Assembly (NCBI GenBank): GCA_011057845.1
Contig: DSDB01000614.1
Location: forward strand, 1-50,115
Direction: 5' to 3'
DNA from: Phycisphaerales bacterium
GTDB taxonomy: Bacteria > Planctomycetota > Phycisphaerae > Sedimentisphaerales > Anaerobacaceae
Length of the DNA stretch: 50,115 bases
Below the pieces are notes generated by a model. That model did no database searches and was not told the origin of the DNA. It saw only the letters and a program-made list of their open reading frames with translations. Of this stretch, positions 18,797 through 48,214 are shown piece by piece (the first letter of the stretch is position 1; every line of letters starts with the position of its first letter). Made by a program: the position numbers and the translations under genes.

Positions 18797-18812
18797 CCGG
18801 CCGTAACAAAAT

Positions 18813-20044: not shown

Positions 20045-20046
20045 CC

Positions 20047-24214: not shown

Positions 24215-24265
24215 TGCCGCGGGCCGTACACCGTCCGGCGAGGTCCCGCGTCGCATGGTGCGGTC

Positions 24266-28779: not shown

Positions 28780-31700
28780 CTATAACAGAGGAACCGAGAC
28801 GGCTGCCAGGCGGGATTCACGGACACAAATACATCTCGCCCGGTACTTGTCGGCCAGTCTCTGGTAGAACTGTGGAAAACGGACCATCGGGCCGCGGGCA
28901 TATCGGCCGAAAACTTCCGCCAGGTACTCATGGAAGCAATGTGCACGGTCGTCGGGATCCTCGATGGCGGCCAGGTGGGGGCAGAGCCTCTCGGCGGGGT
29001 ATCGCTCAACCATGGCGCCCAACGCCTCCGCCATGATCCGGTTTCGCTGCTCGTACCTGTGGCTGTTGCCGCCAGGCAGACGGCGATAGAAGTACCGGCC
29101 TTGAAAATCACAGCGACAAAAACGGATATCCGGCGCATGGCGGCAGAGAAAGACGAAGTCCTCAACGGTATCGACTTCATCATAGAGCCCCGTTCGGTCG
29201 TAGAGGCTGCGGCGTTTGAGACTGCCCGGATTGGGTACGGGCCCGAAGCCGTGTTCAAGCAGAAAGGCCGGCAGGATGCGACTATCCGGAAAGTCCTCAT
29301 ATCGCCACAACTCGCCTGTCGGACAACCGGCCGAGTCAACAAGGGTCAGGGCCGCTGGGTAGACATAGTCGGCCTCCGGGTGCTGTTCAGCGAAGCGCAC
29401 AAGCCCGTCAATGTAGTCGGGAGATATAAAATCGTCGGCGTCCACGTTCAGGATGTACCGGCTGGCGGCCTCGCGGATGGCCCGGTTCAGACCCGATGCG
29501 AAGTTCTTATGCTCTTTGTGGATGCAGCGGATGCGTCGGTCGCCGTAGGCGGTCATGATGTCCGCCGTTCGATCCGTGGAGCCGTCGTTGACTATGAGCA
29601 GCTCGAGTTCCTCGAAGCTCTGCCCCAGGACTGATGCGATCGCCTGCGCTATGTAGGGCTCGGCATTGTAGGCCACCATACACACCGAGACCAAGGGCTC
29701 CCGGCGGCTCGATGCCGCAGACACAGGCGGTGCCGTGATGCTTGGCGACCCGCTCACGTCAGACCGATCCGCCGTCTTGCGGCGGGCCAGAAGCATGTGA
29801 AACGGTACGTCGATGTGGCCGACGATCCAGAGTATCGCCCGGTCATCGGACATCGCATGGACCGCATCGGGAAGATTCTCAATTAGCCCCCGCGCATACA
29901 ACCGGCGAACGAGGGCGAAATACTGCCGAACATCCTCGCGCCGAGCCAGGGCCTCGTTCACGGCGTCGGCGAACAGGGCCTCGGGATCGGCGTCGCTCGA
30001 CCGGGCGCGCGTTTCGGTGCGGCGTTTAAGTGCATTGAGGCGGGCCCTGACACGGGAGAGAATAGCGATATTGACCTTGTCCTTGGAGTGGGCGATGGAG
30101 GTCGGCAACTCGCGGTAGAGGTACAGAGGCTCGTCCACAAAAAACAGGCCGCCAATCTCCTCCATCTTGTAGACGATGTCCACATCCTCGGCGTATACAA
30201 TAGCCTCATCATAGCCGCCGGTTCGATGATAGTACGCGGTCTTGAACGTCTTGAAATGGCTGACGTGGTTTTCGTCGAGAGCCGATGCGCCCGGGCCGAT
30301 GGGTCCGCAGAAGCCCGTCTTGCGAGGCGTCAGATCGGCGCCACAGTAGATGAACTGCGAGTAGATGAGCCCGGCGTCGGGGCGTTCCAGATGGGCCTGG
30401 TGCATCGTCTCGATGGCTCGCGGCGTCAGGGCGTCATCGCTGTCAAGGATACCGAAGACATCGGCCGAGACAGCGGCGATGGCGGTCTTCAGCGCAGCCG
30501 TGTAGCCCTTGTTGACATCGTGATGGAGCACCCGGACGCGGGGATCGGACGCGATGCGGGCGATTTCGGCGAGTGAATCGTCGGTCGAGCCATCGTCGAC
30601 GATGATGAGTTCCCAGTCCGTGAACGTCTGCGACAGCACGGACCTGATCGCCTCGGCGATATAGGGGCCGTTGTTGTAGTTGGCCATGATAACGGAGAAT
30701 CGCGGCTTGGGGCGCGGGCCGCCCGCCGCCTCAACGAGGCGGATTTCCACGGGGTGATGGCACGCCTCGGGCGTGAAGCCTGCGTACCCTCCCACATCGA
30801 TCCGGCGGCCCGCGTCGAATTCGCCAGCCAAGGCCTCGGCGGTATAATCGGGATTGGCTTCACACCGGTTGGGACGCACCGACTGGACCACATTGACGGG
30901 ATTGCAGAATGCCACGGAAGTGGCTGGACACAGCAGCAGCGGCCGAGTCTCGGCAAACAGGCGGGCCTGGGCCGCGAAAGCCTCCTCAAGAGTATTCGGA
31001 TTGGCGAATTCAATGTGTTCCAACACCACCAACAGGTCGGCGGCCCGGTAGAGGGAACTGGACACCTCAAAGGGATAGGCGAAATCGTGCTCGGCCGTTG
31101 TCCAGTTGAACTCCAGTACACCGTCCCGCAGCGGCCGAAACTCCGGCAGCGTCTGTGGCACGCTTCGGGGGTAGCAATACCGCGTGTTACGGCCCAGGCG
31201 AAGCGAGAAACCCAGTGCGGCCGGCTGCGCGGACAGAGCGGCAATACAGCCGCCGGCGGAGAACTCCCGCACGAAGATGTTGTCGTCGACCAGCAATAGG
31301 ACGTGGTCGCAGGACCCCACGAGGCCGAGCAACTGCCCCCGGAAATCGGACTCGGCCAGGAATGCAACGGTCGGGAACTCCTCCGCCAGCTTCTCATATT
31401 GCCGCCGATGCCGTTCGGTGGAGACCTTGTAGAGAATGGTTGGATGGAGGAGATCCGCATCGGTGCAGTGCATCAACAACGATTCCAGCGTCGCCCGTAG
31501 TTGCATCGCGCGGTCCTTGCTGAAGATGATCGTTCGCAAGGGTACACGGCCCGTCCCAAGGATTCTTGACGCTCCCGGCCGGGTGTGTTTCTCCAGGAGA
31601 TGCCGTACCTGCGGGGCGTCGAGACCCTGGTCACGAGCCAGGATAAGCTGTTCGAGGGATGCATCGGTGCGACCGTCCTGGAGAAGGGCTAGGGCCCGCC

Positions 31701-34700
31701 AGTAGGCGCTGGTGGCGTCGCTTATGAATCCGGGACGACGGACGATATCGAACATGGCTGCCATATCCGGCCGCCAGAACAAGCGTCGCGGGTCAGGCAG
31801 GTCCGCCGAGACTTTGTGGCGCCATCGCGCCAGGAGCCGCCTGATGTCGTCGTCCGCCTGAGCCAGATTGGACTGCTTCTGAGCATCGAGGATGTTATGG
31901 TGGGTCACCAGGCCGCAGGGCAGTGGAATCAGGTGCAGACCGGCGTCGTACAGCCGGTAGCAGAAGTCCGTGTCGGCACAATAGAAGCGGTAGGACTCGT
32001 CCAGCCCGCCGATGTGGCGGAAGGCGTCCAGGCGGAATAGGCCGTAGTTCATAAGCAGGCGGGCGCCGTAAGTGAAGTCGATCCCAAACTCGGCCCAGAA
32101 GGGCTGCGCAGGATGAACATTGCGGTAAAAGAACATGCCACCGGCCACGCCGTCACTATGTGTGTCGAGGAGATGGACGGCTTCGGCCAGGGCCCCGGTG
32201 TTGAATGACATGTCATCACTGGCGTACATGGCGTATCGCCCCGTGGCCTTGCTGAAACCGAAGTTATACAGCGCCGGCCACGAATGATGCCCCTGACCCA
32301 GGTGTTCGGACTCGCGATAGACGCGGTTGATGCCGTGTCTACCGAGCACCTCGCGCGTGCCGTCGGTTGAATCCCCATCGATGATGATGAATTCGTACTT
32401 GAGACCATCCGCAGCCGCCTTGATGCTTCCTAGTGCGGCGTCGAGCAATCCGGCCCGGTTCTTCGTGGACAAGACGACACTGAGGTCCGGCCGGTCACCG
32501 GTGCTTGGCGTCGCCTCAACCGGTACGACGGCGTCCGATTCCAAGGAACGAACTGTGGTGACACCCAGGGGCCGGCGGCTGTGGTAGGCTACGCGGACCG
32601 ACTCGGACGCCAGGAACTCGAGTATGCACGGGACGATGGTCCACAGTGAGAGTTGACTACTGTCGTGCAGGTCGTTTTCCTTGAGGTAGCGACGGTGGTG
32701 TTCGGCGAATCGTCGGCCCAGGCGGGTCCAGGGGTTCGTCTTCTCATCACCATTGAAATGGAGGTCGATGCCGCCGCGCAACGACTGGAAGAACTCGCTC
32801 GCAAGGCGGCCCCAGTGGTCGCCCGACCACTCAAACGTGTGGCGAATGTGACGGGCGACAGGCGTGGTAAGGCGGCGGAGTTCCGCCCCGTTGAGCAAGG
32901 CCGCCACCGGCAGGTGGTAGTCCCACCAAGGCATGCCCAGGCAGAGGTTCGACGCCGGGATTCGCGCGATGAGCGATTTGTCAAAAAAGAAAAAGTCAAA
33001 GCCGCAGTTGTAAATGGTTCCATCTTCATCGCCGAGCGCATCGACATCGAGACGCGAACCGTAAAACAGCGATTGTGAGGCTTGGTGTTCAATGAAATCC
33101 AAAAGACCCCGGTCACCGGACAGGTGAATGTCGGCATTGACGATGCCGCAGAGGTCCCCGGCATTCACGGCCAGGACGCCGAGTACGTCGTCTAAGTAGA
33201 CAAGCGGTTTGCCGTAGAGATCGCGCGCGTCGCGCGGCGCCGCCATGAACTCCACTCGCGGGAATGCCGGCGCCAGGCGGTCCACTTCCTCCCGACAATT
33301 GACACTGATGACGCGAAACCCCAGGTCGAGCCAGCTTCGGACGGCGTTTTCCTGGGCGCCGATCCGTGACGGGGCAATGCTGGTCACAATGGTGACGGCC
33401 GGCCGGGCCGCAACTGAAACCGGCCGCGTCTCGGTCGCCCTCACAACGCCTGTCCGAGATCTGGGCGCCGCGGCACAAGCCGAATTCCTGAAACCGTCTA
33501 GTCGCATGGAATCGAGATGCAGCGGTTGCGGCGCCGCCAATTCCCGAGGGCAGTCATTGTGGTCGATCTCGTCCTGCAGGACCCGGCGAGCCTCCTCGGT
33601 GTAGTCCTGCCAGGCGCATTTGGTCTTCTGGCCCGGGTGATGGCGGAATCCGGCCAGCCAGGCGTCAAGAGTGTGAAGACGGGTATGTTTGAAGAAGCGC
33701 AGCCAGAGTTCGCAATCGCCAGCGAATCGCAGGTCCGTTCGGATGCGCCCGCCGGCCCGCTGCCATAGAGTACGAGTCCAGAAGGTGCTCTCTTGCTGGA
33801 TAAAGAACCGGGGACTGGTCTGTAGGTAGTCGACACGCGACCATAACGGGACCCAGCCGACGTTGATGAGCCGCCCGGCAGCATCCCACGCGGTGGGTCG
33901 GCCGGTAAGCCACTGGATGTCGGGATAGCGACTGAATACGTAAGCCACCTTCCAGAAGGCGTCGCGGTGGTACTTATCGTCGGAGTTCAACCAGGCCATG
34001 ATCGAGCCGGTGCTCTTGTCGAACCCCGCTTGGATGGCGGCGTATTGGCCGCCGTCCGGGGTGCTCTGCCAATAAGAAAGGTGCTTCTCGTATTTCCGGA
34101 TGATATCGACCGAACCATCCGTGCTGCCGCCGTCCATGATGATGTATTCGAGATTGGGATAGCCCTGGCTCAGTACCGAATCGATGCACTCTTCGAGAAA
34201 CGCCCCCTGGTTGAAGGACGGTGTTACGATGGATATCTTCGGCAGGCCCGCTGCGACGGGAGGGTGGGCGGTTCCCACCGGGACGGCACGGCGCCCCATG
34301 GCCCCCGCCTCGCGTTTCGTCGACAGAGCCAGCAGACGCGGCTTGGCCTTCTCGGCCTGGCGAAAGACATCGTTGTCCACGACCCGTGGAACAGCCCCGG
34401 GCACGAATAGCATCGGGCTGCCGGCTCGGCGGCGGCACTCGGCGATACAGCGGTGATACAGGTCCAGGTACTGGCCCGCGATGCGTTTGTGGTCGAATGT
34501 CGTTACCGCTCGGCGGCGGGCGGCGGCGGCGAGGCGTCCGCGAAGCCCGGCATCGCGCACCAAATCGATCAGAGACCGCGTGATGGCGGGAATATCGCCG
34601 GCGGGGGTGATGAGGCCCTCTTGTCCATCGCGAACCAGTTCGGGGACCCCACCCGTATCAAAAGCGGCAATCGGCAGACCGCAGGCCAGGGCCTCCAGAA

Positions 34701-35658
34701 CAACCAGCGGGCAGTTGTCGGCGTTCGGCGTATACAAGAAGATGTCGATAGCCGAGTAGGCAAAGGCCAGTGCGGTTTCGTCGGCGATGTGTGGGATATT
34801 GATGATACGAGGGTCTTGCGACGGTCTGTTGTCGCCGATATTGACAAAGACAAACTGACCGGCACCATTGAGCGCATTGAGAACCGCCTGGGTGTGGCGG
34901 CCGCCCTTCCACGGATTGGCCAGCGTGCCGCCGTGCGCGATGGCGCCCACGGCCAGATGATCCGGCGGAATACCGAAGCGATGGCGTGCCTCCTGCTTGT
35001 CGTGCGGACGGAAGACGTCCGTGTCCACGCCGTTGTAGATCAGATCCATGGGGTGGTCTCTGAGGACGGACTGCGCCACCTTATCATGGAGCCATCGCGA
35101 CGGCACGACGATGTGCAGAAAGCTGTGGTCATAGATGCGTTTCTTATCGGCTAGCAAATTGGATGCGTTGTCGACGAACAGAGCCGGGTCAACAGACAGA
35201 TTGGGGCAATCCCGGCAGTCCCGCCGCCAGCGATCGCAATCAAAGGCGTGCGCGCAGTGGCCGGTCAGCGCCTGCATGTCGTGCAGGGTCCAGACGACGG
35301 GCCGCCCATGCGACAACGGCGAGAGGCTGAAAGGATTGAAGTAACCTCCGTGAAGGTTGTGCAAGTGCAGGATGTCCGCAGCTCGGACGTGGGGGTTGAA
35401 GACCAGACGGTGGCTGCCCTGGAACTCGTAGTAGAGCTGCCCGGATTGCAGGCACACGGGGTGAAGGTGTCGGTTCTTCTCGATGGGAAAACTGAATGCA
35501 TTGGGATCGTTCGACAGTTTCTCCCCCACCAACATCGCGGCACGGCAGCCCACGGCACGCTGGGCGCAGGCTAGCCGTGAAGCCACCTTAGCGGCGCCAC
35601 CAGCCACGTCGTGCGTGTTGATATGCAGAATGGACAGGGCTGTGTCAGGCCGGTTCAT
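28780..35658 (-). CDS. Multi-module glycosyltransferase megaprotein (2,292 aa from ATG 35658): GT4-like + GT2 + unassigned + GT2 + unassigned GT-A-like + GT2 + GT2
   Basis: Track ORF 28780..35790. The first 44 codons are Arg/Pro-rich and overlap the upstream gene. ATG 35658 forms an ATGA overlap with the upstream stop. Module motifs (track aa numbering): 52-455 GT-B (PLVVLEALACGLPIAAFDTGGVPELV); 517-740 GT2 (ISIVTPSFNQ..YIIMDGGSTDGS..NSDD); 797-1000 (VTIVTSIAPSRIGAQENAVRSW..IVNADIHL); 1100-1300 GT2 (LSVVLSTKNR..FIIIDGDSTDGT..ASDD); 1417-1640 (TIIFSKDRAMQL..LLLVDDNIF); 1696-1900 GT2 (FSVIMANYNN..LIIVDDGSTDDS..LDSDD); 2031-2250 GT2 (VSVCMVAYNA..LLIVNDGSTDRT..VDADD). Confidence 0.85.
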   Translation of the reverse strand: MNRPDTALSILHINTHDVAGGAAKVASRLACAQRAVGCRAAMLVGEKLSNDPNAFSFPIEKNRHLHPVCLQSGQLYYEFQGSHRLVFNPHVRAADILHLHNLHGGYFNPFSLSPLSHGRPVVWTLHDMQALTGHCAHAFDCDRWRRDCRDCPNLSVDPALFVDNASNLLADKKRIYDHSFLHIVVPSRWLHDKVAQSVLRDHPMDLIYNGVDTDVFRPHDKQEARHRFGIPPDHLAVGAIAHGGTLANPWKGGRHTQAVLNALNGAGQFVFVNIGDNRPSQDPRIINIPHIADETALAFAYSAIDIFLYTPNADNCPLVVLEALACGLPIAAFDTGGVPELVRDGQEGLITPAGDIPAITRSLIDLVRDAGLRGRLAAAARRRAVTTFDHKRIAGQYLDLYHRCIAECRRRAGSPMLFVPGAVPRVVDNDVFRQAEKAKPRLLALSTKREAGAMGRRAVPVGTAHPPVAAGLPKISIVTPSFNQGAFLEECIDSVLSQGYPNLEYIIMDGGSTDGSVDIIRKYEKHLSYWQSTPDGGQYAAIQAGFDKSTGSIMAWLNSDDKYHRDAFWKVAYVFSRYPDIQWLTGRPTAWDAAGRLINVGWVPLWSRVDYLQTSPRFFIQQESTFWTRTLWQRAGGRIRTDLRFAGDCELWLRFFKHTRLHTLDAWLAGFRHHPGQKTKCAWQDYTEEARRVLQDEIDHNDCPRELAAPQPLHLDSMRLDGFRNSACAAAPRSRTGVVRATETRPVSVAARPAVTIVTSIAPSRIGAQENAVRSWLDLGFRVISVNCREEVDRLAPAFPRVEFMAAPRDARDLYGKPLVYLDDVLGVLAVNAGDLCGIVNADIHLSGDRGLLDFIEHQASQSLFYGSRLDVDALGDEDGTIYNCGFDFFFFDKSLIARIPASNLCLGMPWWDYHLPVAALLNGAELRRLTTPVARHIRHTFEWSGDHWGRLASEFFQSLRGGIDLHFNGDEKTNPWTRLGRRFAEHHRRYLKENDLHDSSQLSLWTIVPCILEFLASESVRVAYHSRRPLGVTTVRSLESDAVVPVEATPSTGDRPDLSVVLSTKNRAGLLDAALGSIKAAADGLKYEFIIIDGDSTDGTREVLGRHGINRVYRESEHLGQGHHSWPALYNFGFSKATGRYAMYASDDMSFNTGALAEAVHLLDTHSDGVAGGMFFYRNVHPAQPFWAEFGIDFTYGARLLMNYGLFRLDAFRHIGGLDESYRFYCADTDFCYRLYDAGLHLIPLPCGLVTHHNILDAQKQSNLAQADDDIRRLLARWRHKVSADLPDPRRLFWRPDMAAMFDIVRRPGFISDATSAYWRALALLQDGRTDASLEQLILARDQGLDAPQVRHLLEKHTRPGASRILGTGRVPLRTIIFSKDRAMQLRATLESLLMHCTDADLLHPTILYKVSTERHRRQYEKLAEEFPTVAFLAESDFRGQLLGLVGSCDHVLLLVDDNIFVREFSAGGCIAALSAQPAALGFSLRLGRNTRYCYPRSVPQTLPEFRPLRDGVLEFNWTTAEHDFAYPFEVSSSLYRAADLLVVLEHIEFANPNTLEEAFAAQARLFAETRPLLLCPATSVAFCNPVNVVQSVRPNRCEANPDYTAEALAGEFDAGRRIDVGGYAGFTPEACHHPVEIRLVEAAGGPRPKPRFSVIMANYNNGPYIAEAIRSVLSQTFTDWELIIVDDGSTDDSLAEIARIASDPRVRVLHHDVNKGYTAALKTAIAAVSADVFGILDSDDALTPRAIETMHQAHLERPDAGLIYSQFIYCGADLTPRKTGFCGPIGPGASALDENHVSHFKTFKTAYYHRTGGYDEAIVYAEDVDIVYKMEEIGGLFFVDEPLYLYRELPTSIAHSKDKVNIAILSRVRARLNALKRRTETRARSSDADPEALFADAVNEALARREDVRQYFALVRRLYARGLIENLPDAVHAMSDDRAILWIVGHIDVPFHMLLARRKTADRSDVSGSPSITAPPVSAASSRREPLVSVCMVAYNAEPYIAQAIASVLGQSFEELELLIVNDGSTDRTADIMTAYGDRRIRCIHKEHKNFASGLNRAIREAASRYILNVDADDFISPDYIDGLVRFAEQHPEADYVYPAALTLVDSAGCPTGELWRYEDFPDSRILPAFLLEHGFGPVPNPGSLKRRSLYDRTGLYDEVDTVEDFVFLCRHAPDIRFCRCDFQGRYFYRRLPGGNSHRYEQRNRIMAEALGAMVERYPAERLCPHLAAIEDPDDRAHCFHEYLAEVFGRYARGPMVRFPQFYQRLADKYRARCICVRESRLAAVSVPLL

Positions 35659-38600
35659 GTAAGACTCTCGACGACGTCCTCCAGTACGTTTTCGGCAGGT
35701 CTCTGGCAGGTCATTGCGGCGATGATGCGCCGGGGCCGCTGGGCAAGTGTGCGGCCTTCCAATTGTGACTTGTCGGGGTCGCGTAACCACCGGGCGAAGA
35801 CATCGCCCGTCCAGTTGCGGACGAGAAGACGGGAAACGGCATACAGGTCCACCGGAGGGCTGACATGGCCCTGCGTGTTGGCTAATGCGGCGGTGAAGCC
35901 TTCCGATGCGACCAGTTGGCGGGTCTCGTCGGTAAAGTCGCCGGCCGAACCGAAGGGATAGGACAGCAGGTTCACCGGTTGTCCAGTGAGGGCCTCCAAC
36001 TGCCTCTTGCAGCCGACTACCTCCGCGAACTGATCGCGGACCGACAGGATCCGCAGCCTTGTGTGTGTTTGAGTATGGGCGCCGATCTCAATCAGCGGCG
36101 AGTCGGCCAGGCAACGCAGTTGCGAAAGTGTCAGCGGCCGCTTCGACATCCGTCCGATCAACGGCACGGCGGCCCAGGCAAGGATCATATCAACGACCGG
36201 GTCGATCTGATCGGCGGGCCTGTCGCGCAGAATCGAGCAGATATCGTCATAACACTTCAGACGCTGTGCCGGATCGGCCAAGGACCAGAAAAGCCTCTGG
36301 GAGCCACAAGTCAGAGCCAACGACGGCGGCAGCACGGAGTTCACAAGCAGGGCCTGTTCGAGGGCGTCCCACCAGAATTCGCGGTCGCTGCCAACCATCC
36401 GTGAGGTCACAAAAACGGTGGCCGGGATATTGTGCGCCTTGAGAATCGGCAAGGCCTTCGTGAGGTTGTCGGCATAGCCATCGTCAAACGTGACGGCTAC
36501 GGTGTCCGGCATATACTGGCCGTGGCGGATCTCCTCTACAAGGGTCGGCAGCGGCACGACACGCAAATACGCCGCCAGTTCTGCCATGTGAGCATCGAAA
36601 TTCTCCGGGCTGACCGCCAGGAGCTGGGCGTCAACGGGGTCATCGGCGACGCGGTGGTACAGAAGGATCAGTGGGTGCTCGATGACAACCCTCGGACGCC
36701 CGCCCCCCGAACTCGGCGCAGGCGTGGCCGCCACGGAGTCCCTCGGCTCCCCAGACACCACAGCGGGTTTTGCGGCATGATTCCCGACAGGCACGGCGGC
36801 CTTGCTGGCTCGGGCGGCCAGCAGAACCTGATAGTCCGGATCATTGTGGGCAAGAACCTCGTTGGACAACTGTTCGGCAGGCACGCCATCAAGAAAGGCC
36901 TTGGCCGCCGCCACGTTGCCGTACGCCTGAACACTCACACTGCCTTCAGGAAAGACCTCCTCCACGAGCATGCGCAGGCTCTTGTCCGTGAAGCGCCAGT
37001 ATTCGCCCCAGCGGTCCATATCATAGCGTGATATCTGGCTGATGCCGGAGGCCGTCAGCAGCAATGTCCCGCCGGGTTTGAGGGCCTCGGCGGCGGTCCG
37101 CAGGGCCGCCTTGACATCGTAGATCATCTGAAGGGTCTGCGTCAGGACGATGCAGTCGTAGGCATCCCGCGGGATGTTCCGTCCGGTCGCCAGGTCGCCC
37201 ACGAGCGTGGCCGTCTCCGAAGCCGCAGCACTCAGGACGTCCACACGAGTGGTCCGGGAGCCGTACTTGCGACTGTATTGGTCGTCGCCGACTTCCAGTA
37301 CAACGCCTCGGATGGCGGAGGCATTCTCCGCAAGAAACCGTTCGATGTAGACGCGGTCGATGGGCGTTCCGCGGTCGTAGCCGAATGTCCGGCTGACGGG
37401 CTCGCATCCGGCGTTGTACGTGGCCTCCACGCACCGGGTCGAAGGCCGACCATCCTCCATGGTCCCAGGTTCGTCCCCGGCCCGCTCCGGCGAGAGAATC
37501 CTCTTGGCGTAGATCAGCAGAAAGAAACGCGTCTGAGCGGTCATCTTGAACGGTGGCTTGGTGGCGGGGTTGGTCAGACTGTCAAAGTCATGGATCATGT
37601 AGCGAAACCCCGCGGCCGCCAAGACCGCCAGTATCCTGTGAAGGCTCTGACCCGTTTCGGGAAAGCCGTGATACTCGATGACCAGCTCTTTCACCAGGTG
37701 CAACCGGTCGGCGATCTCCGTGATGACCTCGCTCTCGGCCCCTTCGATGTTGAGTTTCAGAAAGTTGATTTCGCCCTCGATATACCGGCTCAGCGGGACG
37801 ACCCGCACCTTCGTATCGCCGGCCCCGCCGTAGAGGCTACCGCCGTCCGAGTGGTCGGCCGTAAAATCGAGCGTCGCGTCGGATTTGTGCAGACCCGCAT
37901 CCACCACGGTGGCCATGATATTGTTGGCTCGGAGGTTCTTGTGCAGTAACTCGAGCGACTTGCCGTCCGGCTCGAAGATGGTGATTCGGGCGTCGGGGTA
38001 TCGCTGCGCGACGTACAGGCTGAACAGGCCGATGTGTCCGCCCCCATCGATAATGACCGGTCGCGGATTGTCCGTCTCGAAGTCATAGATGCGCTGCAGG
38101 AAGATGTCCTTGGCCGCCATGTAGAACGACAGCAGGTCGTAGCAGTAGATCGTCAGGCCATTGAACTTGACGCAGTAGTCGCCGAACCGCTCCCGCCCCG
38201 CGAGGTTCCGTAATCGCTCGAAGTCCTGCCGTGTGCTCTCCGCGCGAATCTCGATCACGTGATGCGGCGCGACCGATTCCCGCAACGGCGGCGAGGCCGC
38301 CTTGTCGGCGGTTGCGGTGTATTCCTGAACCATCTGCGCCAATTCGGCCATCCGGTGTCGGTAGGTATGCTCTCGCAGTGTCCGCTCCTGGCCGGCGGCG
38401 GCGATATGGGCCCGTTCGGATTCGCTATCCAGGAAGTGCCGCAGCAACTCAGCGCAATGTTCCGCGGATTCGTAGGCCACAACCTCCCGGCCGGGGGCAA
38501 ACAGTTCATGGAGATTGTCCTTGCGGTCGGTCAGCAACAAGGCCCCCATGCCCGTGGCCTCGTAGAGCCGCATGTTGTTGGCGTGCGAACCGGCAATGTC

Positions 38601-39413
38601 AATGTGGCGGTTCAGGACGACTCGGGCACGGCTGTAGAGTCTGTACATCTCCAGCCCGAAGAGCGGACCCTTGAAAAACTCGCGGGCCCGATCCGAAAGA
38701 CCATCGTATCCGAAGCCATGCAGATTCATGGCAAAGCCGCGGTCGGCGAGGGCGTTGAATAGCTCGGTTCCGCCCTTGTGGCCGCCCGTGAACTGGCCTA
38801 CGAAGGCAACGTCAACCGGCCGGTCCGATGGGATGTCCACGCGGTCCAGGAGGGTCGACTCGAAGCCCAGACGAAAGTACTCGGCGGGCTTGCCCAGACG
38901 GCGGAAACCGTCAACATAACCCGGTATGGAGGACAACAGTAGATCATAGGCCGACAGGTCCCGCATGGCCATCGTCAAGGGCGCGGCATGTTGGCCCACC
39001 ATCAGACGGACAAAGGGTTTGACGGGATTCAGGACGTCGCTGGTGACTTGCTCCATCGCCAGGTTGATGATGATATCCGGCTTGAACAGGCGGACTCTGG
39101 CTTGAAGTATGGCGGCCAGATGCTCCGCCGTCATGGTGGCGATCTGCCGCGGGTCGGCTTGCGTCCGGGCGATCAGGCCGTTCTCGCGGGCCCAGGCGTA
39201 TTGCATGAATGGGGCGTTGTAGATGATGTCGGCGGCTTCGTGGCCTAGGGCCCTCAGGTTCCTCGAGTAGAAGTCCGCCACGCCGAAACAGGTGGCCATA
39301 CGGGCCTCATACTGCTGCTCGAAGGGCCGCATCTCGAGACCGGGGTTTTCGGCGTACAGGCGGGCGAGAAACGGCTCATAATCCGTGTTGACAATCAAGA
39401 ATCGCAGCGACAT
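35655..39413 (-). CDS. Four-domain fusion enzyme (1,252 aa from ATG ~39413): CgeB-like glycosyltransferase + FkbM-family methyltransferase + class I SAM methyltransferase + CE4 polysaccharide deacetylase
   Basis: Track ORF 35655..39716. The first 101 codons are Arg/Pro-rich and non-coding-looking. The Met at codon 102 has GGAG 8 nt upstream. Motifs: VAFVGQFTGGH...RLYEATGMGALLLTD (Glyco_trans_1_2/CgeB type); VIIDGGGHIGLFSLY..FEPDG..NFLKLNIEGAE (FkbM); VVLEVGDD...YDCIVLTQTLQMIYD...LKPGGTLLLT (class I MTase); AVTFDDGYADN...IGAHTQTHTRL...LSYPFGS (NodB/CE4). Confidence 0.85.
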   Translation of the reverse strand: MSLRFLIVNTDYEPFLARLYAENPGLEMRPFEQQYEARMATCFGVADFYSRNLRALGHEAADIIYNAPFMQYAWARENGLIARTQADPRQIATMTAEHLAAILQARVRLFKPDIIINLAMEQVTSDVLNPVKPFVRLMVGQHAAPLTMAMRDLSAYDLLLSSIPGYVDGFRRLGKPAEYFRLGFESTLLDRVDIPSDRPVDVAFVGQFTGGHKGGTELFNALADRGFAMNLHGFGYDGLSDRAREFFKGPLFGLEMYRLYSRARVVLNRHIDIAGSHANNMRLYEATGMGALLLTDRKDNLHELFAPGREVVAYESAEHCAELLRHFLDSESERAHIAAAGQERTLREHTYRHRMAELAQMVQEYTATADKAASPPLRESVAPHHVIEIRAESTRQDFERLRNLAGRERFGDYCVKFNGLTIYCYDLLSFYMAAKDIFLQRIYDFETDNPRPVIIDGGGHIGLFSLYVAQRYPDARITIFEPDGKSLELLHKNLRANNIMATVVDAGLHKSDATLDFTADHSDGGSLYGGAGDTKVRVVPLSRYIEGEINFLKLNIEGAESEVITEIADRLHLVKELVIEYHGFPETGQSLHRILAVLAAAGFRYMIHDFDSLTNPATKPPFKMTAQTRFFLLIYAKRILSPERAGDEPGTMEDGRPSTRCVEATYNAGCEPVSRTFGYDRGTPIDRVYIERFLAENASAIRGVVLEVGDDQYSRKYGSRTTRVDVLSAAASETATLVGDLATGRNIPRDAYDCIVLTQTLQMIYDVKAALRTAAEALKPGGTLLLTASGISQISRYDMDRWGEYWRFTDKSLRMLVEEVFPEGSVSVQAYGNVAAAKAFLDGVPAEQLSNEVLAHNDPDYQVLLAARASKAAVPVGNHAAKPAVVSGEPRDSVAATPAPSSGGGRPRVVIEHPLILLYHRVADDPVDAQLLAVSPENFDAHMAELAAYLRVVPLPTLVEEIRHGQYMPDTVAVTFDDGYADNLTKALPILKAHNIPATVFVTSRMVGSDREFWWDALEQALLVNSVLPPSLALTCGSQRLFWSLADPAQRLKCYDDICSILRDRPADQIDPVVDMILAWAAVPLIGRMSKRPLTLSQLRCLADSPLIEIGAHTQTHTRLRILSVRDQFAEVVGCKRQLEALTGQPVNLLSYPFGSAGDFTDETRQLVASEGFTAALANTQGHVSPPVDLYAVSRLLVRNWTGDVFARWLRDPDKSQLEGRTLAQRPRRIIAAMTCQRPAENVLEDVVESLT

Positions 39414-39759
39414 ATCAGGTCTCCGTGAGGAACGGGTTATCGGGTTGGACGGGTATGGGGCCGGATCGGCAACCGCGGCGCAGTCGGCCTCGACAACATG
39501 CTTGAGAGTATCGATCGGTGCGCCGTGAACATTGCCGCATCGACGCAACGGGAGATGGCCCCCGCGGTGTTCCTGAAGAAACAGACCCGTGAAACCAGCG
39601 GATATGGCGGGGCAGATTCCATCATCAGAACCGGGTGGAGACCGACGCCGGCTCGGCGGCGAAATATTCCCGCGCGGACTCCGTCCCCGTCGGTGGCCTC
39701 GACTGTCCAAAGTCAACCCACGAGGTCGACCCCGACGCGCACAAACCGCCCTCGCCGTT

Positions 39760-40083
39760 TCATGCGCGGCTCTTGTAAGCCCGCAGCGTCTTTCTGACTA
39801 TTCGTGCTTCTTCCAGCCTGCCGGCCGCCTGCGAAAGCTCGCAATGCACCGCCAGCGTCAATTCACCGTACAACCGCCCCAGCCGCTCGCCTCGTCGCCG
39901 GAACAACTCGCCGTCCGTAACCCCCCATTGAACGAACCGCCGGATGATCTCGCCGCTGTCCCGACACAGGGCCTCCAGTCGGGCCGTCTCGCCCCCTCGG
40001 GCCAGACGTATCTGCTCGCCCAGACAGGCCTCCAACCGATCCAGGTCCTGCTCGATCCGATTGTCGTCAAGGTACGAGTCCAT
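39760..40083 (-). CDS. Small all-helical hypothetical protein (107 aa), possible chaperone/adaptor
   Basis: The ATG abuts the stop of the upstream TPR gene (40084/40083). Heptad-like Leu/Arg/Glu-rich sequence with no enzymatic motif. Confidence 0.5.
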   Translation of the reverse strand: MDSYLDDNRIEQDLDRLEACLGEQIRLARGGETARLEALCRDSGEIIRRFVQWGVTDGELFRRRGERLGRLYGELTLAVHCELSQAAGRLEEARIVRKTLRAYKSRA

Positions 40084-40710
40084 CTATGTCGTCGCCGCCC
40101 GACCGTTTAAACTGCGCTCCACCTCCTCCAACAGGTTCGCCGCATCCTGGTTCTCAGGGTCTACGGCGGCAATATCACCCAACATCTTCCTGGCCTCGCT
40201 CAACCGCGAGTCCCTGGCGTACAACGTCGCCAGACAGAACATCACGGACGTGTCGCCCGGGTGCATCCCAAGGTAGGATTCCAGGTGCCGGATTACCTCG
40301 GCGAACGACCCCATCATGCACGAAACCTGGAACAGCCCCAGCAGCGCCGTCAGATTGTCCGCGTCCCGCTCCAGGGACTTCAGATAGAGATCGAACGCCC
40401 GCGGCCCATCGTTGCGTTGCTGAGCGATCATGGCAAGCCCCGCGTAGGCCTTCGCACAGCCGCCGTCCAGACGGCAGGCGACACGGAAGGACAACTCCGC
40501 ATTCTCCAAGTCGTTCTCCTGCAGCGCCACGACTCCCAGCCCTACATAGGGTCCGGGCTCATCCGGCCCGACCGTCGCGGCCTGCTCATAACACCTCTTC
40601 GCATCCGGGTATCGTCCGACCGTCGCATAGCAGTCGCCAAGTTCACACAGCAGCTCGCATCGCTGGGTCGTATTCTCGAATTCCGCCGTGTTGTTCGTCG
40701 TCACATCCAT
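40084..40710 (-). CDS. TPR-only protein (208 aa from ATG 40710)
   Basis: Track ORF 40084..40830. ATG 40710 overlaps the upstream gene's end by 10 nt (TCTCTATGGATGTGA). About five TPR units (YPDAKRCYEQAATVGPDEPGPYVGLG..., AKAYAGLAMIAQQRNDGPRAFDLYLKSLERDADN...). Confidence 0.75.
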   Translation of the reverse strand: MDVTTNNTAEFENTTQRCELLCELGDCYATVGRYPDAKRCYEQAATVGPDEPGPYVGLGVVALQENDLENAELSFRVACRLDGGCAKAYAGLAMIAQQRNDGPRAFDLYLKSLERDADNLTALLGLFQVSCMMGSFAEVIRHLESYLGMHPGDTSVMFCLATLYARDSRLSEARKMLGDIAAVDPENQDAANLLEEVERSLNGRAATT

Positions 40711-42299
40711 AGAGACTCTCTTCCATTGACCAGGTCCACGGCCCTTTCGAGCAGTGCGATTGCTGATGCGGGGTCCTTGGCGCGTCTGCGCAGTCGTCCT
40801 TCGAGAAGCAGTGTCTCGACCGTTGGACACGGGTCATTGACCTGCCGGCACAGCTCCCCAGCCCGTTGATAGTTGCCGCTGCGATAGTGAGCATCCGCCG
40901 CCAGTGACCGGACATACCATTCGTTGCCGTACCGCTCGGCAAGGTACTCGAACAGGCCGGCCGCCCGGGCCCACTGGCCCGCCGCGGCGTGTGCCCTGGC
41001 CTGTTCGAGCAACTGGTCGTACTGAAAAGGTATCTCGTCCGGCTCCACGCGACGGACCACCACACCGACACCCGGCAGGGCCTGCCGTAGCGGCGTATCG
41101 GGATGGTGTCGCCGGGCCTGCGCAATGGCTTCTCTCGTCCCGACCACCGCCCATTGCGCCGCATTGGAATCCTCCAGCTCGAACGCTGTGTCGGGATGGG
41201 CCAATAAGGGGGAGATCGAGTCCTCGACCCAGAAGTTGCGAATGGGAAACCCCTGCGGCACTACCGCCACAAGGTCTCCGTCGCAAGCCTCCAACGCGGC
41301 ATCGATCCTCCGGCAGGCCGCTGTCTGGGGGTCCACCGCAACCGGCACAACATTGGGTATCGTACGACCGCCGATAGCAACCGTACCGCAGCCATGATCA
41401 GCCCCGAGCGCCTCCACATCCTGCGCCGGCAGCGGCAGATAAACACAATAAGGGTAGAACGTGTGGCGACGGACTGCTTCAAGCATCCTTGCGAGACTGT
41501 CGTTAAGCCGCTCCGCCACGATGATGATCGACAGGTCCTTGACGGCGCTCCAAGGCTTGGCCGGCCGCGTCGTGCGAACTGTCAGAAAGGTCTCGACAAA
41601 CGCCTCCCGGTCCTGTCGGCCCTGATGTGATAGTCGCTCCGAGCCCCCGACCGGGCTGTAGAATTCCCCTGTAATCCTCCGGATATGGTAGAAATCCGTG
41701 AAGAAGACGGCCTTGCGCGTAAGGTCCCAGTCGATCAGGAGCTTCAGCTCCTCATTGAAAGGCCCCGTCTGATCCAACAGCTCCCTGTCGTGCATCAGGC
41801 TGACGTGTAACGTGTGATTGAAGCACAGCATCAGAAAACGATCGAAGTCCCGGCTGATCTCAAGGACCTTGCTCAAGACCGTTCTCATCCCATCGGGCTC
41901 AACCCGGCAGTACACCCGATACAGGTCCGTATAGGCCAGCCGGCAATCCGTCCGGCTCTCAAGTGCATCGACCAGGGTCTCGACGTGGTACGGATACAGC
42001 AGGTCATCGTCGTCAAGATAGGCAATGTACTTGCCCTCGGCATGCGCCAGCGCCTCATTGAGCGACGCCGCCTTGCCCAGATTCTCATCCCGGTTGATGA
42101 ACAAAACCCGCTGGTCCCGTAGACGCTCCACAATGTCGTCCACACGCTCGCCTCCGTCGCGGACCAGGATGATCTGTACGTTCCGATAGCTCTGCCGCAA
42201 CGCGCTCGACAGCGCCACCGGTAGAGACCCCCTGCGATTGTGCGTTGGAATCACAATCGTAACCTGTGGACCACGTTTTTCGGCGCCGTTGCAGACCAT
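40701..42299 (-). CDS. GT2 glycosyltransferase with C-terminal TPR region
   Basis: 532 aa. VTIVIPTHNRRGSLPVALSSALRQSYRNVQIILVRDGG...YLDDDD (GT-A/GT2). C-terminal TPR-like helices (ARAAGLFEYLAERYGNEWYVRSLAADAHYRSGNYQRA). Confidence 0.8.
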   Translation of the reverse strand: MVCNGAEKRGPQVTIVIPTHNRRGSLPVALSSALRQSYRNVQIILVRDGGERVDDIVERLRDQRVLFINRDENLGKAASLNEALAHAEGKYIAYLDDDDLLYPYHVETLVDALESRTDCRLAYTDLYRVYCRVEPDGMRTVLSKVLEISRDFDRFLMLCFNHTLHVSLMHDRELLDQTGPFNEELKLLIDWDLTRKAVFFTDFYHIRRITGEFYSPVGGSERLSHQGRQDREAFVETFLTVRTTRPAKPWSAVKDLSIIIVAERLNDSLARMLEAVRRHTFYPYCVYLPLPAQDVEALGADHGCGTVAIGGRTIPNVVPVAVDPQTAACRRIDAALEACDGDLVAVVPQGFPIRNFWVEDSISPLLAHPDTAFELEDSNAAQWAVVGTREAIAQARRHHPDTPLRQALPGVGVVVRRVEPDEIPFQYDQLLEQARAHAAAGQWARAAGLFEYLAERYGNEWYVRSLAADAHYRSGNYQRAGELCRQVNDPCPTVETLLLEGRLRRRAKDPASAIALLERAVDLVNGRESLWM

Positions 42300-42327
42300 T
42301 CACAAAAACCCATCGACCAACTCAACT

Positions 42328-43815
42328 TCACCACTGCGTCGCAAAAGCCGGGTCTGTCTGTTGCGACAAGGTCGTCCCGGACATCCGCAACGGCGTATCG
42401 ACGATACTCGGCTTTCTCTCGGCGTCGATCTCCATCTCGAACCGCGTAAACAGGTCGTTCACCACCGTCAGTTGGGCCTTGAGCGAGGCGTTCTCCTCAA
42501 CATAACGGCGATACCGCGCGGGCTCGTAAGGTCCGTGCACGATCATCTCGCAGAACTGCTCGCTGATGTTGAAGAGAAACTCTCGCGGCAACACACTTTC
42601 AGCCCCCAGGAAGTTATGGACGACCGGCTTGAGACCACAGGCCATCGCCTCGAGGACCGCCACCGGGTGACCCTCGCAGATGCTTGTACAGAGGATATAG
42701 TGCTTGTCCGCCAGCCAGGCCGCGACATCGTGCTGGTAGCCCTCGAAGACCACCACGCCCTCCAAATCCAGTGCCCGCACCATCTGCCGCAAGTACCGTT
42801 CAAGAGCTGCGTCCTGAATAGTCCCGGCAACGAACAGCCTGTATTCGGGGTCGATGTAGTGCAGCTTCTGCATGCACTGCAATGCAAGAGCTGGATTCTT
42901 GACCATCCGCAGATTGGCAATCATGGCCAGATTCTTGCCCTTGTCGCGCGCCGTAAAACGGAACTTATCCAGATTCACGCCGTTGGGAACTGTCTGGACG
43001 GATGTTCTGGCCTGTATATCCGGCACGGCCGCGGTCAGGGCCTCCAGCGTGGCACTATTGCCGACGGCAATGAGCGTATCCACGTTGGACCAGTCGACCT
43101 GCCTGGGCCATGGCGCGTAAGCCTCGTAGCGGTGGAGCCTTACGATGTTCCGCGAGACCTTGGGCATCTGCGATGCCCTGGCCGCGAGGTTCGTGCACCA
43201 CTCGAACCAGCAGATATCCGCCCACTGCATGGTCTGCCGCAGTTCTTCCTCGGTTCGGCCGTCAAAAACCCGAGTCTGAAACCGTTTACGCGTGAATTCC
43301 ACAATCTCGTTGAGGAAGCTTGACCCATCGGCGCCACAGAAGAACGCTATCCTGGGCCTCTTGTTGAGGATCAGGTCCACCATCGGCTGAATCACGCGCT
43401 GCTCCGGGCTGAGCTTCAACGAGCACAATAGTGCCTCGACGGCCGCGGCCTTGTCGTTTTGGTCCAGCAGCACCGCCGCAGCTCGGTTGAGCACGTCGGC
43501 GCTGAGAATCTCCAGCCGCTGCATATCGCCGAACAAGGCCATAGCCTCCCGAGCGCGTCCGGCCGCAATGTATGTCTCAGAGAGATTCCACAGTATCTCG
43601 CCGCTGTCCGGCCGCAGTAAACGAGCCCGCCGCAGGTGGTCGATGGCCTCATCCGACCGCCCCAGACAGTGCAGAATCGCCCCGGCGTCGTTGAGGGCTT
43701 CCGCGTCATCGGGCGAATGCGCAAGGTGTCTTCGGATGTGTTCGAGTGCCGCCGAGTGCCGCCCCGATTGGGCCAACTCGAGCCCTGTCCGGTAGTCGTC
43801 TGTGTGGCCGTCCAT
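42328..43815 (-). CDS. TPR + GT4-like glycosyltransferase (495 aa from ATG 43815)
   Basis: Track ORF 42328..43923. ATG 43815 has GAAGAGG upstream and lies downstream of the sigma54 box. N-terminal TPRs (AEALNDAGAILHCLGRSDEAIDHLRRARLLRPDSGEILWNLSETY). C-terminal GT-B motif TSICEGHPVAVLEAMACGLKPVVHNF. Confidence 0.8.
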   Translation of the reverse strand: MDGHTDDYRTGLELAQSGRHSAALEHIRRHLAHSPDDAEALNDAGAILHCLGRSDEAIDHLRRARLLRPDSGEILWNLSETYIAAGRAREAMALFGDMQRLEILSADVLNRAAAVLLDQNDKAAAVEALLCSLKLSPEQRVIQPMVDLILNKRPRIAFFCGADGSSFLNEIVEFTRKRFQTRVFDGRTEEELRQTMQWADICWFEWCTNLAARASQMPKVSRNIVRLHRYEAYAPWPRQVDWSNVDTLIAVGNSATLEALTAAVPDIQARTSVQTVPNGVNLDKFRFTARDKGKNLAMIANLRMVKNPALALQCMQKLHYIDPEYRLFVAGTIQDAALERYLRQMVRALDLEGVVVFEGYQHDVAAWLADKHYILCTSICEGHPVAVLEAMACGLKPVVHNFLGAESVLPREFLFNISEQFCEMIVHGPYEPARYRRYVEENASLKAQLTVVNDLFTRFEMEIDAERKPSIVDTPLRMSGTTLSQQTDPAFATQW

Positions 43816-43911
43816 GTGTACCTCTTCGAGTATTGTGGTTTTTAGCGTCTTGGCCCCGCCAGGCAGGGCAAGGCTGCGAAGCGACCGCAGAGGACCGCCC
43901 TGCGAACAACG

Positions 43912-43927
43912 TGCAAAACCCATGCCG
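43912..43927 (-). promoter_or_regulatory. sigma54-type promoter candidate for the glycosylation operon
   Basis: Minus strand reads CGGCATGGGTTTTGCA. GG and GC sit at exact -24/-12 spacing, with 2 mismatches to TGGCACG-N4-TTGCA. About 95 nt upstream of ATG 43815. Confidence 0.55.
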
Positions 43928-44060
43928 AGCCGCCTGCGGGCACGACAAGGGCACTCCGACCTTTCTCACCGAGGAATCTGTACGGATGTCGAACACCCGT
44001 GTAGGCCAAACGGTCAGGAACCAAAGGCTGCATCGTGGGAATATGGGAAATCTAGGAAGA

Positions 44061-47847: not shown

Positions 47848-47854
47848 CGTGGCC

Positions 47855-48202
47855 TCACACGCCCTGTCCCTGATCAAGCGGTTTACCCGGTGCGGCTACC
47901 CCATCCGCTTGCAGCGACTGATAGATCTGCTTCCAAAGACCCAAGCCCCCCTGCCTGCCCAATTCGTCGGCCAGGTGGAACCAGAACAAGTCGTACGTCT
48001 GAGCGGCCGCTCCATCGACTTCAAAACCCCACTGCCCGACCGATTCCTTCATCTGCTCCAGAACACGGTGCATCAGAACCGACTCGAACTGCTTGGCGAA
48101 CTCCATCTTCTTGGCGTCTATGATCGGAGCGGTGGTATCCAACTTGCCAACAAGGTTCGCGACGCTCACGGGCGAGTTTGCGGTCAAATGGTCGACACTC
48201 AT
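47855..48202 (-). CDS. flgJ: Rod-binding protein (FlgJ N-terminal domain only, no muramidase domain)
   Basis: 115 aa. FAKQFESVLMHRVLEQMKES...DLFWFHLADELGRQGGLGLWKQI matches the Rod_binding domain pattern. The gene ends there. Confidence 0.75.
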   Translation of the reverse strand: MSVDHLTANSPVSVANLVGKLDTTAPIIDAKKMEFAKQFESVLMHRVLEQMKESVGQWGFEVDGAAAQTYDLFWFHLADELGRQGGLGLWKQIYQSLQADGVAAPGKPLDQGQGV

Positions 48203-48214
48203 GGACAGTCCCTC

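Follow-up and report, generated by a model that had tools for sequence, protein, structure and literature searches.

Why does a block of glycan-enzyme genes sit inside a flagellar gene cluster, and which product does it serve? The question is raised by a window of 50,115 nucleotides (nt) from a Phycisphaerales bacterium (GenBank assembly GCA_011057845.1, contig DSDB01000614.1, positions 1 to 50,115; "the window" is this whole stretch), in which six open reading frames (ORFs), called A to F here, occupy 28780-43927 between flgL and fliD, all on the minus strand. An earlier note on this DNA had proposed that the six genes form one unit encoding a cytoplasmic flagellin-glycan system. The part of that proposal describing soluble, exporter-less machinery tied to the flagellar cluster is upheld, whereas the single unit and the glycan role of gene C are not. 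The block is probably a cytoplasmic, lipid-carrier-independent island for the O-glycosylation of flagellin, in which the priming core is conserved and the extension part variable. It consists of a fixed core (F, E, D and C) and a plug-in region, B and A being the plug-in of this genome. The genes and their flanks are as follows.

26279..28648, minus strand: fliD (filament cap), the downstream flank, at which the variable slot always ends
28780..35658, minus strand: gene A, 2292 amino acids (aa), seven-module glycosyltransferase (GT)
35655..39413, minus strand: gene B, 1252 aa, four-module modifying enzyme
39414..39759: spacer between C and B, 346 nt, non-coding, the boundary between conserved core and variable slot
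39760..40083, minus strand: gene C, 107 aa, helical, last gene of the conserved core
40084..40710, minus strand: gene D, 208 aa, tetratricopeptide repeats (TPR) only, conserved core
40701..42299, minus strand: gene E, 532 aa, GT2 and TPR, conserved core
42328..43815, minus strand: gene F, 495 aa, TPR and GT4, conserved core
44061..45245, minus strand: flgL, the upstream flank, always followed next by the conserved core

The six co-oriented ORFs and the coordinates of both flanks agree with the earlier description, and its four junctions are exact: an ATGA at 35655-35658 belongs both to the B stop and to the A start, 10 nt (40701-40710) are common to E and D, the D stop lies next to the C ATG (40084/40083), and F and E are separated by 28 nt (42300-42327). 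Other elements of it had to be revised. F had been started at 43923, whereas gene callers and homologues place the ATG at 43815, leaving the conserved promoter inside the longer ORF; and the supposed unit of six genes resolves into a four-gene conserved core and a hypervariable slot that holds B and A here. The upstream extension of the B ORF is rich in Arg and Pro and has no gene-caller support. The block is not an assembly artefact, because the same A and B proteins were recovered from three assemblies independent of one another and the nearest genome, the metagenome-assembled genome (MAG) Phycisphaerales bacterium UBA2266, carries an A ortholog of likewise 2292 aa that is 88% identical. GC content is flat across the region at about 0.61, and a horizontally acquired compositional island, considered as a candidate, was ruled out by this flat profile together with the vertically conserved core.

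The fixed nature of the core, with its invariant order flgK-flgL-F-E-D-C, emerges from its neighbourhoods. A metagenome scan seeded with the E alignment confirmed 540 relatives; synteny was counted in the best 80 of these, each denominator comprising the loci whose contig extends far enough. The core has flgL upstream in 49/49 loci, F directly follows flgL in 62/62, D is present in 63/63 and C in 53/56. The order flgL-F-E-D-C is found as well in the GTDB loci that reach far enough (L006, L008, L009, L010, L045, L046 and L058), and a homologue of A stands immediately before fliD-flhB-fliP in about 27 GTDB species loci. The neighbourhood survey that the earlier note had recommended thus yields a highly consistent flagellar linkage within the lineage. 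The E family has 790 members at E<=1e-20, the named ones all coming from MAGs of Sedimentisphaerales/Planctomycetota.

The slot between C and fliD varies in every respect, with a span from 0.3 kb to more than 9 kb; many loci continue for more than 9 kb after C without reaching fliD. No gene occupies it in L088 (289 bp) or L100 (451 bp); it holds one 960-aa u2-GT2-GT2 protein (u2 being a module described below) in L009, proteins of 478, 1999 and 915 aa in L010, a single ORF of 4064 aa in L045 and a 2925-aa ORF in L058. Other slots carry sugar-nucleotide genes of ordinary size: a nucleoside-diphosphate-sugar 4,6-dehydratase, epimerases/reductases, split transketolase-like proteins and a B12-radical-SAM (S-adenosylmethionine) enzyme in L090, and a DegT aminotransferase in L134. 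The largest slot ORF has a median length of 1541 aa and reaches at least 2000 aa in 9/30 informative slots. Judged from these sequences, giant fused GTs are common in the lineage, and their family is not exclusively flagellar.

The domain content of the core joins protein-binding repeats to catalysis, and Pfam agrees with the earlier assignments of F, E and D as TPR plus GT4, GT2 plus TPR, and TPR-only proteins, respectively. F has N-terminal TPRs at about residues 1-165, which resemble those of O-GlcNAc transferase (OGT), followed by a GT4 domain of the GT-B fold at 165-495 (Pfam), an architecture by analogy with which F is a candidate protein-directed priming transferase. E comprises a GT2 domain with a DDDD motif (residues 1-260), a middle domain (260-425) and C-terminal TPRs (425-532). 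The middle domain of E is conserved, with many invariant positions (for example HTFYPY.VYLPLP), and has no family match. D bears a weak resemblance to the SycD/LcrH TPR chaperones, at 40 bits and below the family cutoff, and is a candidate substrate adaptor or chaperone.

C requires a different reading from that of the earlier note, which had counted it among the glycan genes. The 107-aa ORF itself is real and conserved in the homologue alignment, and directly precedes fliD where the slot is empty. Among 14 homologues compared with Pfam, 8/14 match FliT weakly (best E 1.3e-5) and 6/14 match FlgN, while the copy in the window has no match, and no relevant sequence match to C was found in the PDB. 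C is probably a FliT/FlgN-like flagellar export chaperone and not a glycan enzyme.

The plug-in of this genome contributes most of the catalytic capacity. In A, Pfam recognises one GT4 and four GT2 stretches and leaves two stretches of about 275 aa unmatched, named u1 and u2; in B, it recognises all four domains. The modules are listed below by gene.

34369-35658 (minus strand), A residues 1-430: GT4, Pfam
33484-34263 (minus strand), A residues 466-725: GT2, Pfam
32614-33423 (minus strand), A residues 746-1015: GT-A module u1, predicted structure and Foldseek
31744-32493 (minus strand), A residues 1056-1305: GT2, Pfam
30724-31548 (minus strand), A residues 1371-1645: GT-A module u2, predicted structure and Foldseek
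29944-30714 (minus strand), A residues 1649-1905: GT2, Pfam
28783-29718 (minus strand), A residues 1981-2292: GT2, Pfam
38289-39413 (minus strand), B residues about 1-375: GT-B half (Glyco_trans_1_2), Pfam
37539-38096 (minus strand), B residues 440-625: FkbM methyltransferase, Pfam
36909-37346 (minus strand), B residues 690-835: class-I SAM methyltransferase, Pfam
35658-36716 (minus strand), B residues 900-1252: CE4 deacetylase, Pfam, NCBIfam and deacetylase matches in the PDB

For u1 and u2, no match was found in Pfam even at E<=1, in NCBIfam or in a profile search of the PDB. Their structures were predicted from alignments of database proteins and the models compared to the PDB with Foldseek, the best matches of both being GT-A glycosyltransferases only (E about 1e-9 to 1e-7; TM-score about 0.5-0.6). 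The u2 model, with a pLDDT (predicted local distance difference test) of 92.0, finds its best folds in GnT-I, SpsA, POMGnT1 and TarP (E 2e-9 to 1e-7; TM-score about 0.5), and the u1 model (pLDDT 91.6) in CHSY3, WrtF, TarP, RmlT and SpsA (E 5e-9). Each family alignment has an invariant acidic motif (VDDN for u2, NxD for u1) within the longer motif strings IFSKDRAMQL...VDDN...GFSLRLG...EVSSSVY...NPN for u2 and TSIAP...NSDI...DFFFFD...PWWDYW...HxxH for u1. Dozens of other giant proteins contain each of these modules too, at positions that change from one protein to another. On the strength of these models, u1 and u2 are candidates for new GT-A glycosyltransferase families.

Because u1 and u2 fold as GT-A modules in the predictions, alongside the GT4 and four GT2 modules, A is read as seven GT modules, in agreement with the earlier note, to which Pfam contributes five and the predicted folds two. 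DXD-type motifs are present in all GT-A modules of A, and the GT4 glutamate (EX7E) motif is intact on reading the sequence. The fusion of a GT, two methyltransferases and a deacetylase attributed to B matches its Pfam domains; the CE4 deacetylase carries the motifs TFDDG, HTQTH and SYPFG, with an RxPY-like motif visible too, and four-module proteins like B occur in Ignavibacteriales (L082) and Nitrospiraceae (L031). The island thereby totals 13 catalytic modules (10 GT, 2 methyltransferase and 1 deacetylase), the number given before by eye and now backed by Pfam, structure prediction and Foldseek. None of the island proteins scores above the cutoff of an NCBIfam model, which leaves them with no named equivalog, and relatives are annotated merely as "glycosyltransferase".

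The junction between B and A also recurs in other loci. The succession of methyltransferase, CE4 deacetylase and GT4 with which B ends and A begins is retained in several phyla (L031, L039, L050, L051, L057 and L082), and deacetylase and GT4 are fused in one polypeptide in Ignavibacteria (L032 and L037) and likewise in L051. At sequence level, this conserved junction suggests a functionally coupled unit that adds, deacetylates and methylates.

Selection on A was assessed against the UBA2266 ortholog (L004). The dN/dS ratio (nonsynonymous to synonymous divergence) lies between 0.12 and 0.30 in each of the seven modules, a range that indicates purifying selection on all of them. Synonymous divergence (dS) itself is mosaic, with values of 0.13-0.22 in modules 3-6 and 0.44-0.82 in modules 1, 2 and 7, a pattern suggesting that the middle of A was recently exchanged by recombination.

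The island proteins are soluble by hydropathy. In A to F, no 19-residue stretch attains a Kyte-Doolittle mean of 1.9, the maximum being 1.71 in a buried GT4 helix, whereas the controls FlhB, FliP and FliF reach 2.6-2.8; the earlier statement that no transmembrane helix exists in the six products is thus borne out. The sole membrane proteins in the window are flagellar. Across its 50 kb, no ABC (ATP-binding cassette) ATPase, Wzm/Wzt, flippase, polymerase, priming transferase, ligase or oligosaccharyltransferase was found, and no sugar-nucleotide gene, extending over the whole window the absences that had been noted for the island. NeuB, PseB/C and CMP-sugar synthetase are likewise missing from the window and could lie elsewhere in the genome. 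No window gene has a Maf (MAF_flag10/DUF115) match in Pfam, and no transposase or integrase gene was found around A and B. A motif and hydropathy scan of 83 loci detected no ABC transporter pair and no non-flagellar polytopic protein in the flagellar-flanked Phycisphaerae-type GTDB loci.

The control region upstream of F contains two elements that may also connect the island to the flagellar genes.

43913..43927, minus strand: cGGCAtGGGTTTTGC, a sigma-54-type promoter about 100 nt before the F ATG that retains both the -24 GG and the -12 GC
43975..43995, minus strand: conserved upstream box TGTTCGAcATccgTACAgATT, about 69 nt upstream of the -24 element (in relatives TGTtcGATATTTATACAnATTTT, about 65-70 nt upstream)

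The pattern GGCAyGnnaTTTGc stands at the same place before F in L006, L008, L009, L010, L046 and L058, making seven species with the window, and this phylogenetic footprint supports the flagellar-type promoter that had been suggested. The transcription start predicted from it lies near 43900, about 12 nt beyond the -12 element. In the alignment of the flgL-F intergenic regions of these seven species, the window copy of the upstream box is degenerate; the box is a candidate site for an enhancer-binding protein, judging by its conservation and position. A gene for a sigma-54 activator (enhancer-binding protein) lies at 2824-4287 on the plus strand, and exact sigma-54 consensus sequences, TGGCAC-N5-TTGC, occur at 13037-13051 (+) and 22402-22416 (+), the latter about 40 nt before fliO. 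Scans for sigma-70 promoters and terminators returned counts at or below the shuffled expectation, and the sigma-28 pattern is above chance window-wide, yet gives no convincing site before F.

The whole window forms one flagellar supercluster, containing flgI, a flgJ-like gene, flgN, flgK, flgL, fliD, flhB, fliP, fliO, motAB, fliFG, fliK, fliC, fliS and the sigma-54 activator gene. The flagellin that the earlier note had named was located in it, about 20 kb from the island.

8282..9097, minus strand: flagellin, the proposed acceptor, with Pfam Flagellin_N and Flagellin_C in the translation

This protein has 271 aa and consists of the D0/D1 domains only, with the Ser/Thr-rich loop TGSNLTSASGGLAITGLAISTEASAK that had been quoted. 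A second 271-aa ORF, at 47675-48490 (+), was rejected as a flagellin: it is antisense to flgN and the flgJ-like gene, has a low-complexity Arg/Ser-rich translation with no flagellin features, and is spurious, although a search by length could confuse it with the true gene. Close to the flagellin gene lie a 607-aa TPR and GT41 protein of OGT-like, FlmG-like architecture (5841-7664, minus strand), directly downstream of fliS; a 338-aa GT4 protein (9490-10506, plus strand), divergent from fliC; and a 141-aa TPR/GT9-like fragment (10598-11023, minus strand), which may be a gene remnant. By their sequences and position, the TPR-GT41 and GT4 proteins beside fliS and fliC are candidates for alternative or additional flagellin-priming enzymes, competing for the priming role.

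Further ORFs of the cluster deserve mention. Several sizeable ones have no Pfam match (12792-13577, 17161-18282, 18218-20059 and 23813-24691, all on the minus strand); some of these may be lineage-specific flagellar proteins, and certain ones, such as 23813-24691, antisense to fliQ/fliR, are probably spurious. At the cluster edge, upstream of the sigma-54 activator gene, at least 14 TPR repeats account for nearly all of an 840-aa protein (11-2533, plus strand).

Relatives outside the Planctomycetes associate giant GTs with flagellin itself. In Geotalea sp. SG265 (L024), a 271-aa flagellin and two TPR-GT genes are found 3 kb away from the giant GT P0028 (3835 aa; ORF of about 4030 aa). An Ignavibacteriales MAG has the order B-like protein (1210 aa, same four modules), A-like protein (2119 aa), TPR-GT4, TPR-only, GT2-TPR and flagellin. 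Other Ignavibacteria have flagellin and then fliD within 10 kb (L032, L054) or flagellin within 10 kb (L037), and a Nitrospirae MAG (L038) has flagellin nearby. The flagellins measured in the non-planctomycete giant-GT loci are all short, at 271-286 aa. Another relative, in Geomonas sp. Red32 (L080), is a 2329-aa giant GT followed by a 1598-aa Pfam-less protein and two TPR-GT41 proteins, and preceded by DegT, NTP-transferase, hexapeptide-acetyltransferase and epimerase genes, with no flagellar gene within 10 kb.

Every computational test proposed beforehand supports a glycan machinery that is soluble, has no exporter and belongs to the flagellar regulon. From the arrangement, we infer the following order of action. 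The core would be transcribed from the sigma-54-type promoter just after flgKL, and the TPRs of F, E and D would dock the enzymes on an unfolded export substrate, most likely the 271-aa flagellin, before it reaches the gate of the type III export apparatus. The first sugar or sugars would be placed on Ser/Thr residues of the exposed loop by the GT4 of F, the GT2 of E or both, with C, as a FliT/FlgN-like chaperone, belonging to the export side. A, with seven modules, and B, with one, would then extend this primer by up to eight further glycosyl transfers, and B would modify the glycan further through de-N-acetylation and two methylation steps. With no sugar-synthesis gene present, housekeeping nucleotide sugars would serve as donors. 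If each module adds one sugar, a glycan of roughly ten residues would result, a size compatible with export, since up to 11 sugars are documented on the a-type flagellin of Pseudomonas aeruginosa (PMC3958885). Module recombination, fusion and fission in the slot would lead to a species-specific filament glycan.

Several observations weigh against this reading. Glycosylation of the flagellar proteins of this lineage is a prediction from genes, and the flagellin gene lies about 20 kb from the island with GT genes of its own nearby. The window promoter has two mismatches to the consensus, and two-mismatch matches number 45 where 55.7 are expected by chance; because this count does not exceed chance, support for the promoter comes from its conservation. 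One Sedimentisphaerales scaffold (L007, 4793-14981) has E-D-C and two multi-module GTs with no flgL, F or fliD, flanked by mlaE and an MlaF-like ATPase whose ORF runs on into E, and by 6-phosphogluconate dehydrogenase and uxaC; it is either a relocated cassette or a chimeric scaffold, the latter being possible because E is read through from the MlaF-like ORF. The ignavibacterial GT2-TPR genes are 14-17% identical to E and share the architecture alone. Giant relatives also occur in the non-flagellate cyanobacterium Microcoleus, with sulfotransferases and deoxysugar genes, and in a Verrucomicrobia locus with NeuB and CMP-sugar genes and no visible flagellar gene. Distant module homologues, including the methyltransferase-deacetylase-GT4 unit, stand in Wzm/Wzt loci of Thermincola, a Clostridiales MAG and Desulfovibrio. 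The low identity to E also ruled out the ignavibacterial TPR-GT genes as E orthologues; the B-like and A-like proteins there are true homologues.

These last loci lead to a first alternative, in which the island makes a lipid-linked, O-antigen-like or capsule-like polysaccharide on undecaprenyl phosphate for a Wzm/Wzt exporter encoded elsewhere, with A as the polymerase, B as the modifying or terminating enzyme, and the flagellar location reflecting co-regulation, for example of a sheath or surface coat made during motility. The module families, to judge from their homologues, are shared with polysaccharide pathways, and it is multi-module GTs together with methyltransferase terminators that define glycan assembly dependent on ABC transporters (PMC11231755). 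ABC2_membrane and ABC_tran genes and a GDP-mannose dehydratase do lie beside distant homologues of the GT4, GT2 and methyltransferase-deacetylase modules (L049, L051 and L055). Such polysaccharide enzymes are soluble or peripheral too, so the missing transmembrane helices do not discriminate. Linkage of homologous islands to exporters, which the earlier note had named as evidence against its proposal, is accordingly found among distant relatives, but not among close ones: the flagellar-flanked Phycisphaerae-type loci hold no ABC transporter pair, and the 50-kb window holds no Wzm/Wzt, flippase, priming transferase or ligase. TPR protein-binding domains in three proteins, retention of the TPR-GT core where the slot is empty (L088, L100) and a linkage to flgL, fliD and flagellin that recurs in four phyla fit this alternative poorly, and it is improbable.

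A second alternative keeps direct protein glycosylation and changes the acceptor, which would be another export substrate (FliD, FlgK/FlgL or the hook), while flagellin would be modified by the TPR-GT41 and GT4 enzymes flanking fliC and fliS. In all Phycisphaerae loci the core is indeed tied to flgKL and fliD, and not to fliC; C, which lies directly against fliD wherever the slot is empty, resembles FliT, the chaperone of FliD; and the separate FlmG-like TPR-GT41 right after fliS, with a GT4 beside fliC, would leave flagellin provided for. Flagellin is by far the commonest glycosylated flagellar protein. Being abundant and exposed on the surface, it is also the substrate for which the hypervariability of a glycan would count, and giant GTs adjoin its gene in Geotalea, Ignavibacteria and Nitrospirae, so this assignment of another acceptor has little chance of being correct.

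That B and A are selfish, decaying or unrelated cargo in a recombination hot spot, the core alone mattering for the flagellum, is scarcely credible: the extremely variable and at times empty slot, the 346-nt non-coding spacer between slot and core and the mosaic dS along A would suit it, but all seven A modules are under purifying selection with equal length in a 12% diverged relative, the catalytic motifs are intact, the ATGA overlap of B and A indicates translational coupling, and both genes are co-oriented in an operon ending with fliD, with no transposase or integrase and no compositional anomaly.

The flagellin O-glycosylation island can be taken further, into a more specific and doubtful proposal. 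The giant proteins might be soluble glycan "megasynthases", each GT module adding one defined sugar directly onto the flagellar protein in the cytoplasm, so that module order and content specify the glycan; recombination, fusion and fission of modules in the slot would then be a combinatorial generator of species-specific coats replacing the missing outer domains of flagellins of about 270 aa, and u1 and u2 would found new GT-A families. This is possible, yet we regard it as rather unlikely in its full form.

The significance lies in where and how widely the pattern occurs. Flagellin glycosylation is well studied in a few pathogens, with single-domain enzymes and one to about eleven sugars. 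Here, a large, environmentally widespread and uncultured lineage (Sedimentisphaerales/Phycisphaerae) has a fixed TPR-GT core in its flagellar late operon, and the slot behind it often holds fused multi-module GTs of 1,500 to 4,000 aa. If the acceptor is confirmed, no enzyme fusion known for direct protein glycosylation would be more extensive, and the system would lend itself naturally to testing whether module order encodes glycan sequence. It would then supply two uncharacterised GT-A families, together with soluble enzymes that need no carrier and are useful for glyco-engineering. It might also explain how minimal flagellins gain a variable surface. A full-text literature search found no giant or multi-domain GTs in flagellar loci and no flagellin glycosylation in Planctomycetes or Geobacter, which is not proof of absence.

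Among known systems, the closest in logic are the flagellin glycosylation islands of Pseudomonas. The Pseudomonas island sits close to the flagellin gene, between flgL and fliC. These islands (the 14-gene a-type island of PAK, the b-type PA1088-PA1091 with FgtA, and fgt1/fgt2 with the viosamine island in P. syringae) share with the present block a polymorphic set of genes in the flagellar cluster, methyltransferases, some enzyme fusions and, on the reading proposed here, soluble sequential glycosylation without an oligosaccharyltransferase. The block described here differs in lying between flgL and fliD, with flagellin 20 kb off, in a conserved part made of TPR-bearing GTs and a TPR-only protein, and in the lack of sugar-nucleotide genes in the island of this genome. 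Its extension enzymes are fused into seven and four modules, with relatives of up to about 4,000 aa, whereas those of Pseudomonas are single-domain or two-domain proteins. The a-type flagellin of P. aeruginosa carries a two-stage glycan, a common primer with a strain-specific extension, of up to 11 sugars (PMC3958885), and PA1091 is a fusion of GT2 and phosphotransferase (PMC11833859).

For the core, the nearest architectures are found in single TPR-glycosyltransferases. GmaR, the flagellin O-GlcNAc transferase of Listeria monocytogenes, places a GT2 domain ahead of its TPR repeats and modifies flagellin directly. E follows this domain order, with an extra conserved middle domain, and the likeness is one of architecture that implies no anti-repressor role. 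FlmG, the pseudaminyltransferase of Caulobacter crescentus, shares its TPR plus GT-B architecture with F and with the TPR-GT41 protein at 5841-7664; in this 596-aa enzyme, the N-terminal TPRs bind flagellins and the C-terminal GT-B domain glycosylates them, in the cytoplasm and on short flagellins of about 270 aa (PMC7591256). FlmG adds a single sugar type, whereas up to 10 GT modules are available here, and no genes for pseudaminic or legionaminic acid synthesis occur in the window.

The degree of fusion has its parallels elsewhere. Multi-module GTs with methyltransferase modules are a hallmark of ABC-transporter-dependent O-polysaccharide assembly (PMC11231755), and WsaE of Geobacillus carries fused modules in S-layer glycan assembly (PMC2943079). 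Like A and B, such enzymes (Klebsiella O7 ORF6, WbdA/WbdD, WbbB and WsaE) combine fused GT and methyltransferase modules in soluble or peripheral assembly complexes. They use undecaprenyl carriers with wzm/wzt adjacent and usually have 2-4 modules, in contrast to the present island, which has no transporter or primer, possesses TPR adaptors and is embedded among flagellar late genes. Maf systems (Campylobacter, Aeromonas and Shewanella) add glycans to flagellin in the cytoplasm, ahead of its chaperone binding and export (PMC4065374), and need accessory adaptor proteins such as GlfM (bioRxiv 10.1101/2023.12.03.569772), a role that could fall to D here. The present system is not Maf-type by this comparison, because the window has no Maf domain and no nonulosonic-acid pathway; by analogy, it would work like the Pseudomonas islands and the TPR-glycosyltransferases of the FlmG/GmaR type. 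No new principle is involved. The result is a well-supported genomic prediction resting on a solid, widespread genomic pattern, new in its conserved TPR-GT/TPR/FliT-like core within the flgKL-fliD operon, its plug-in slot, its degree of fusion and its two candidate Pfam-less GT-A families.

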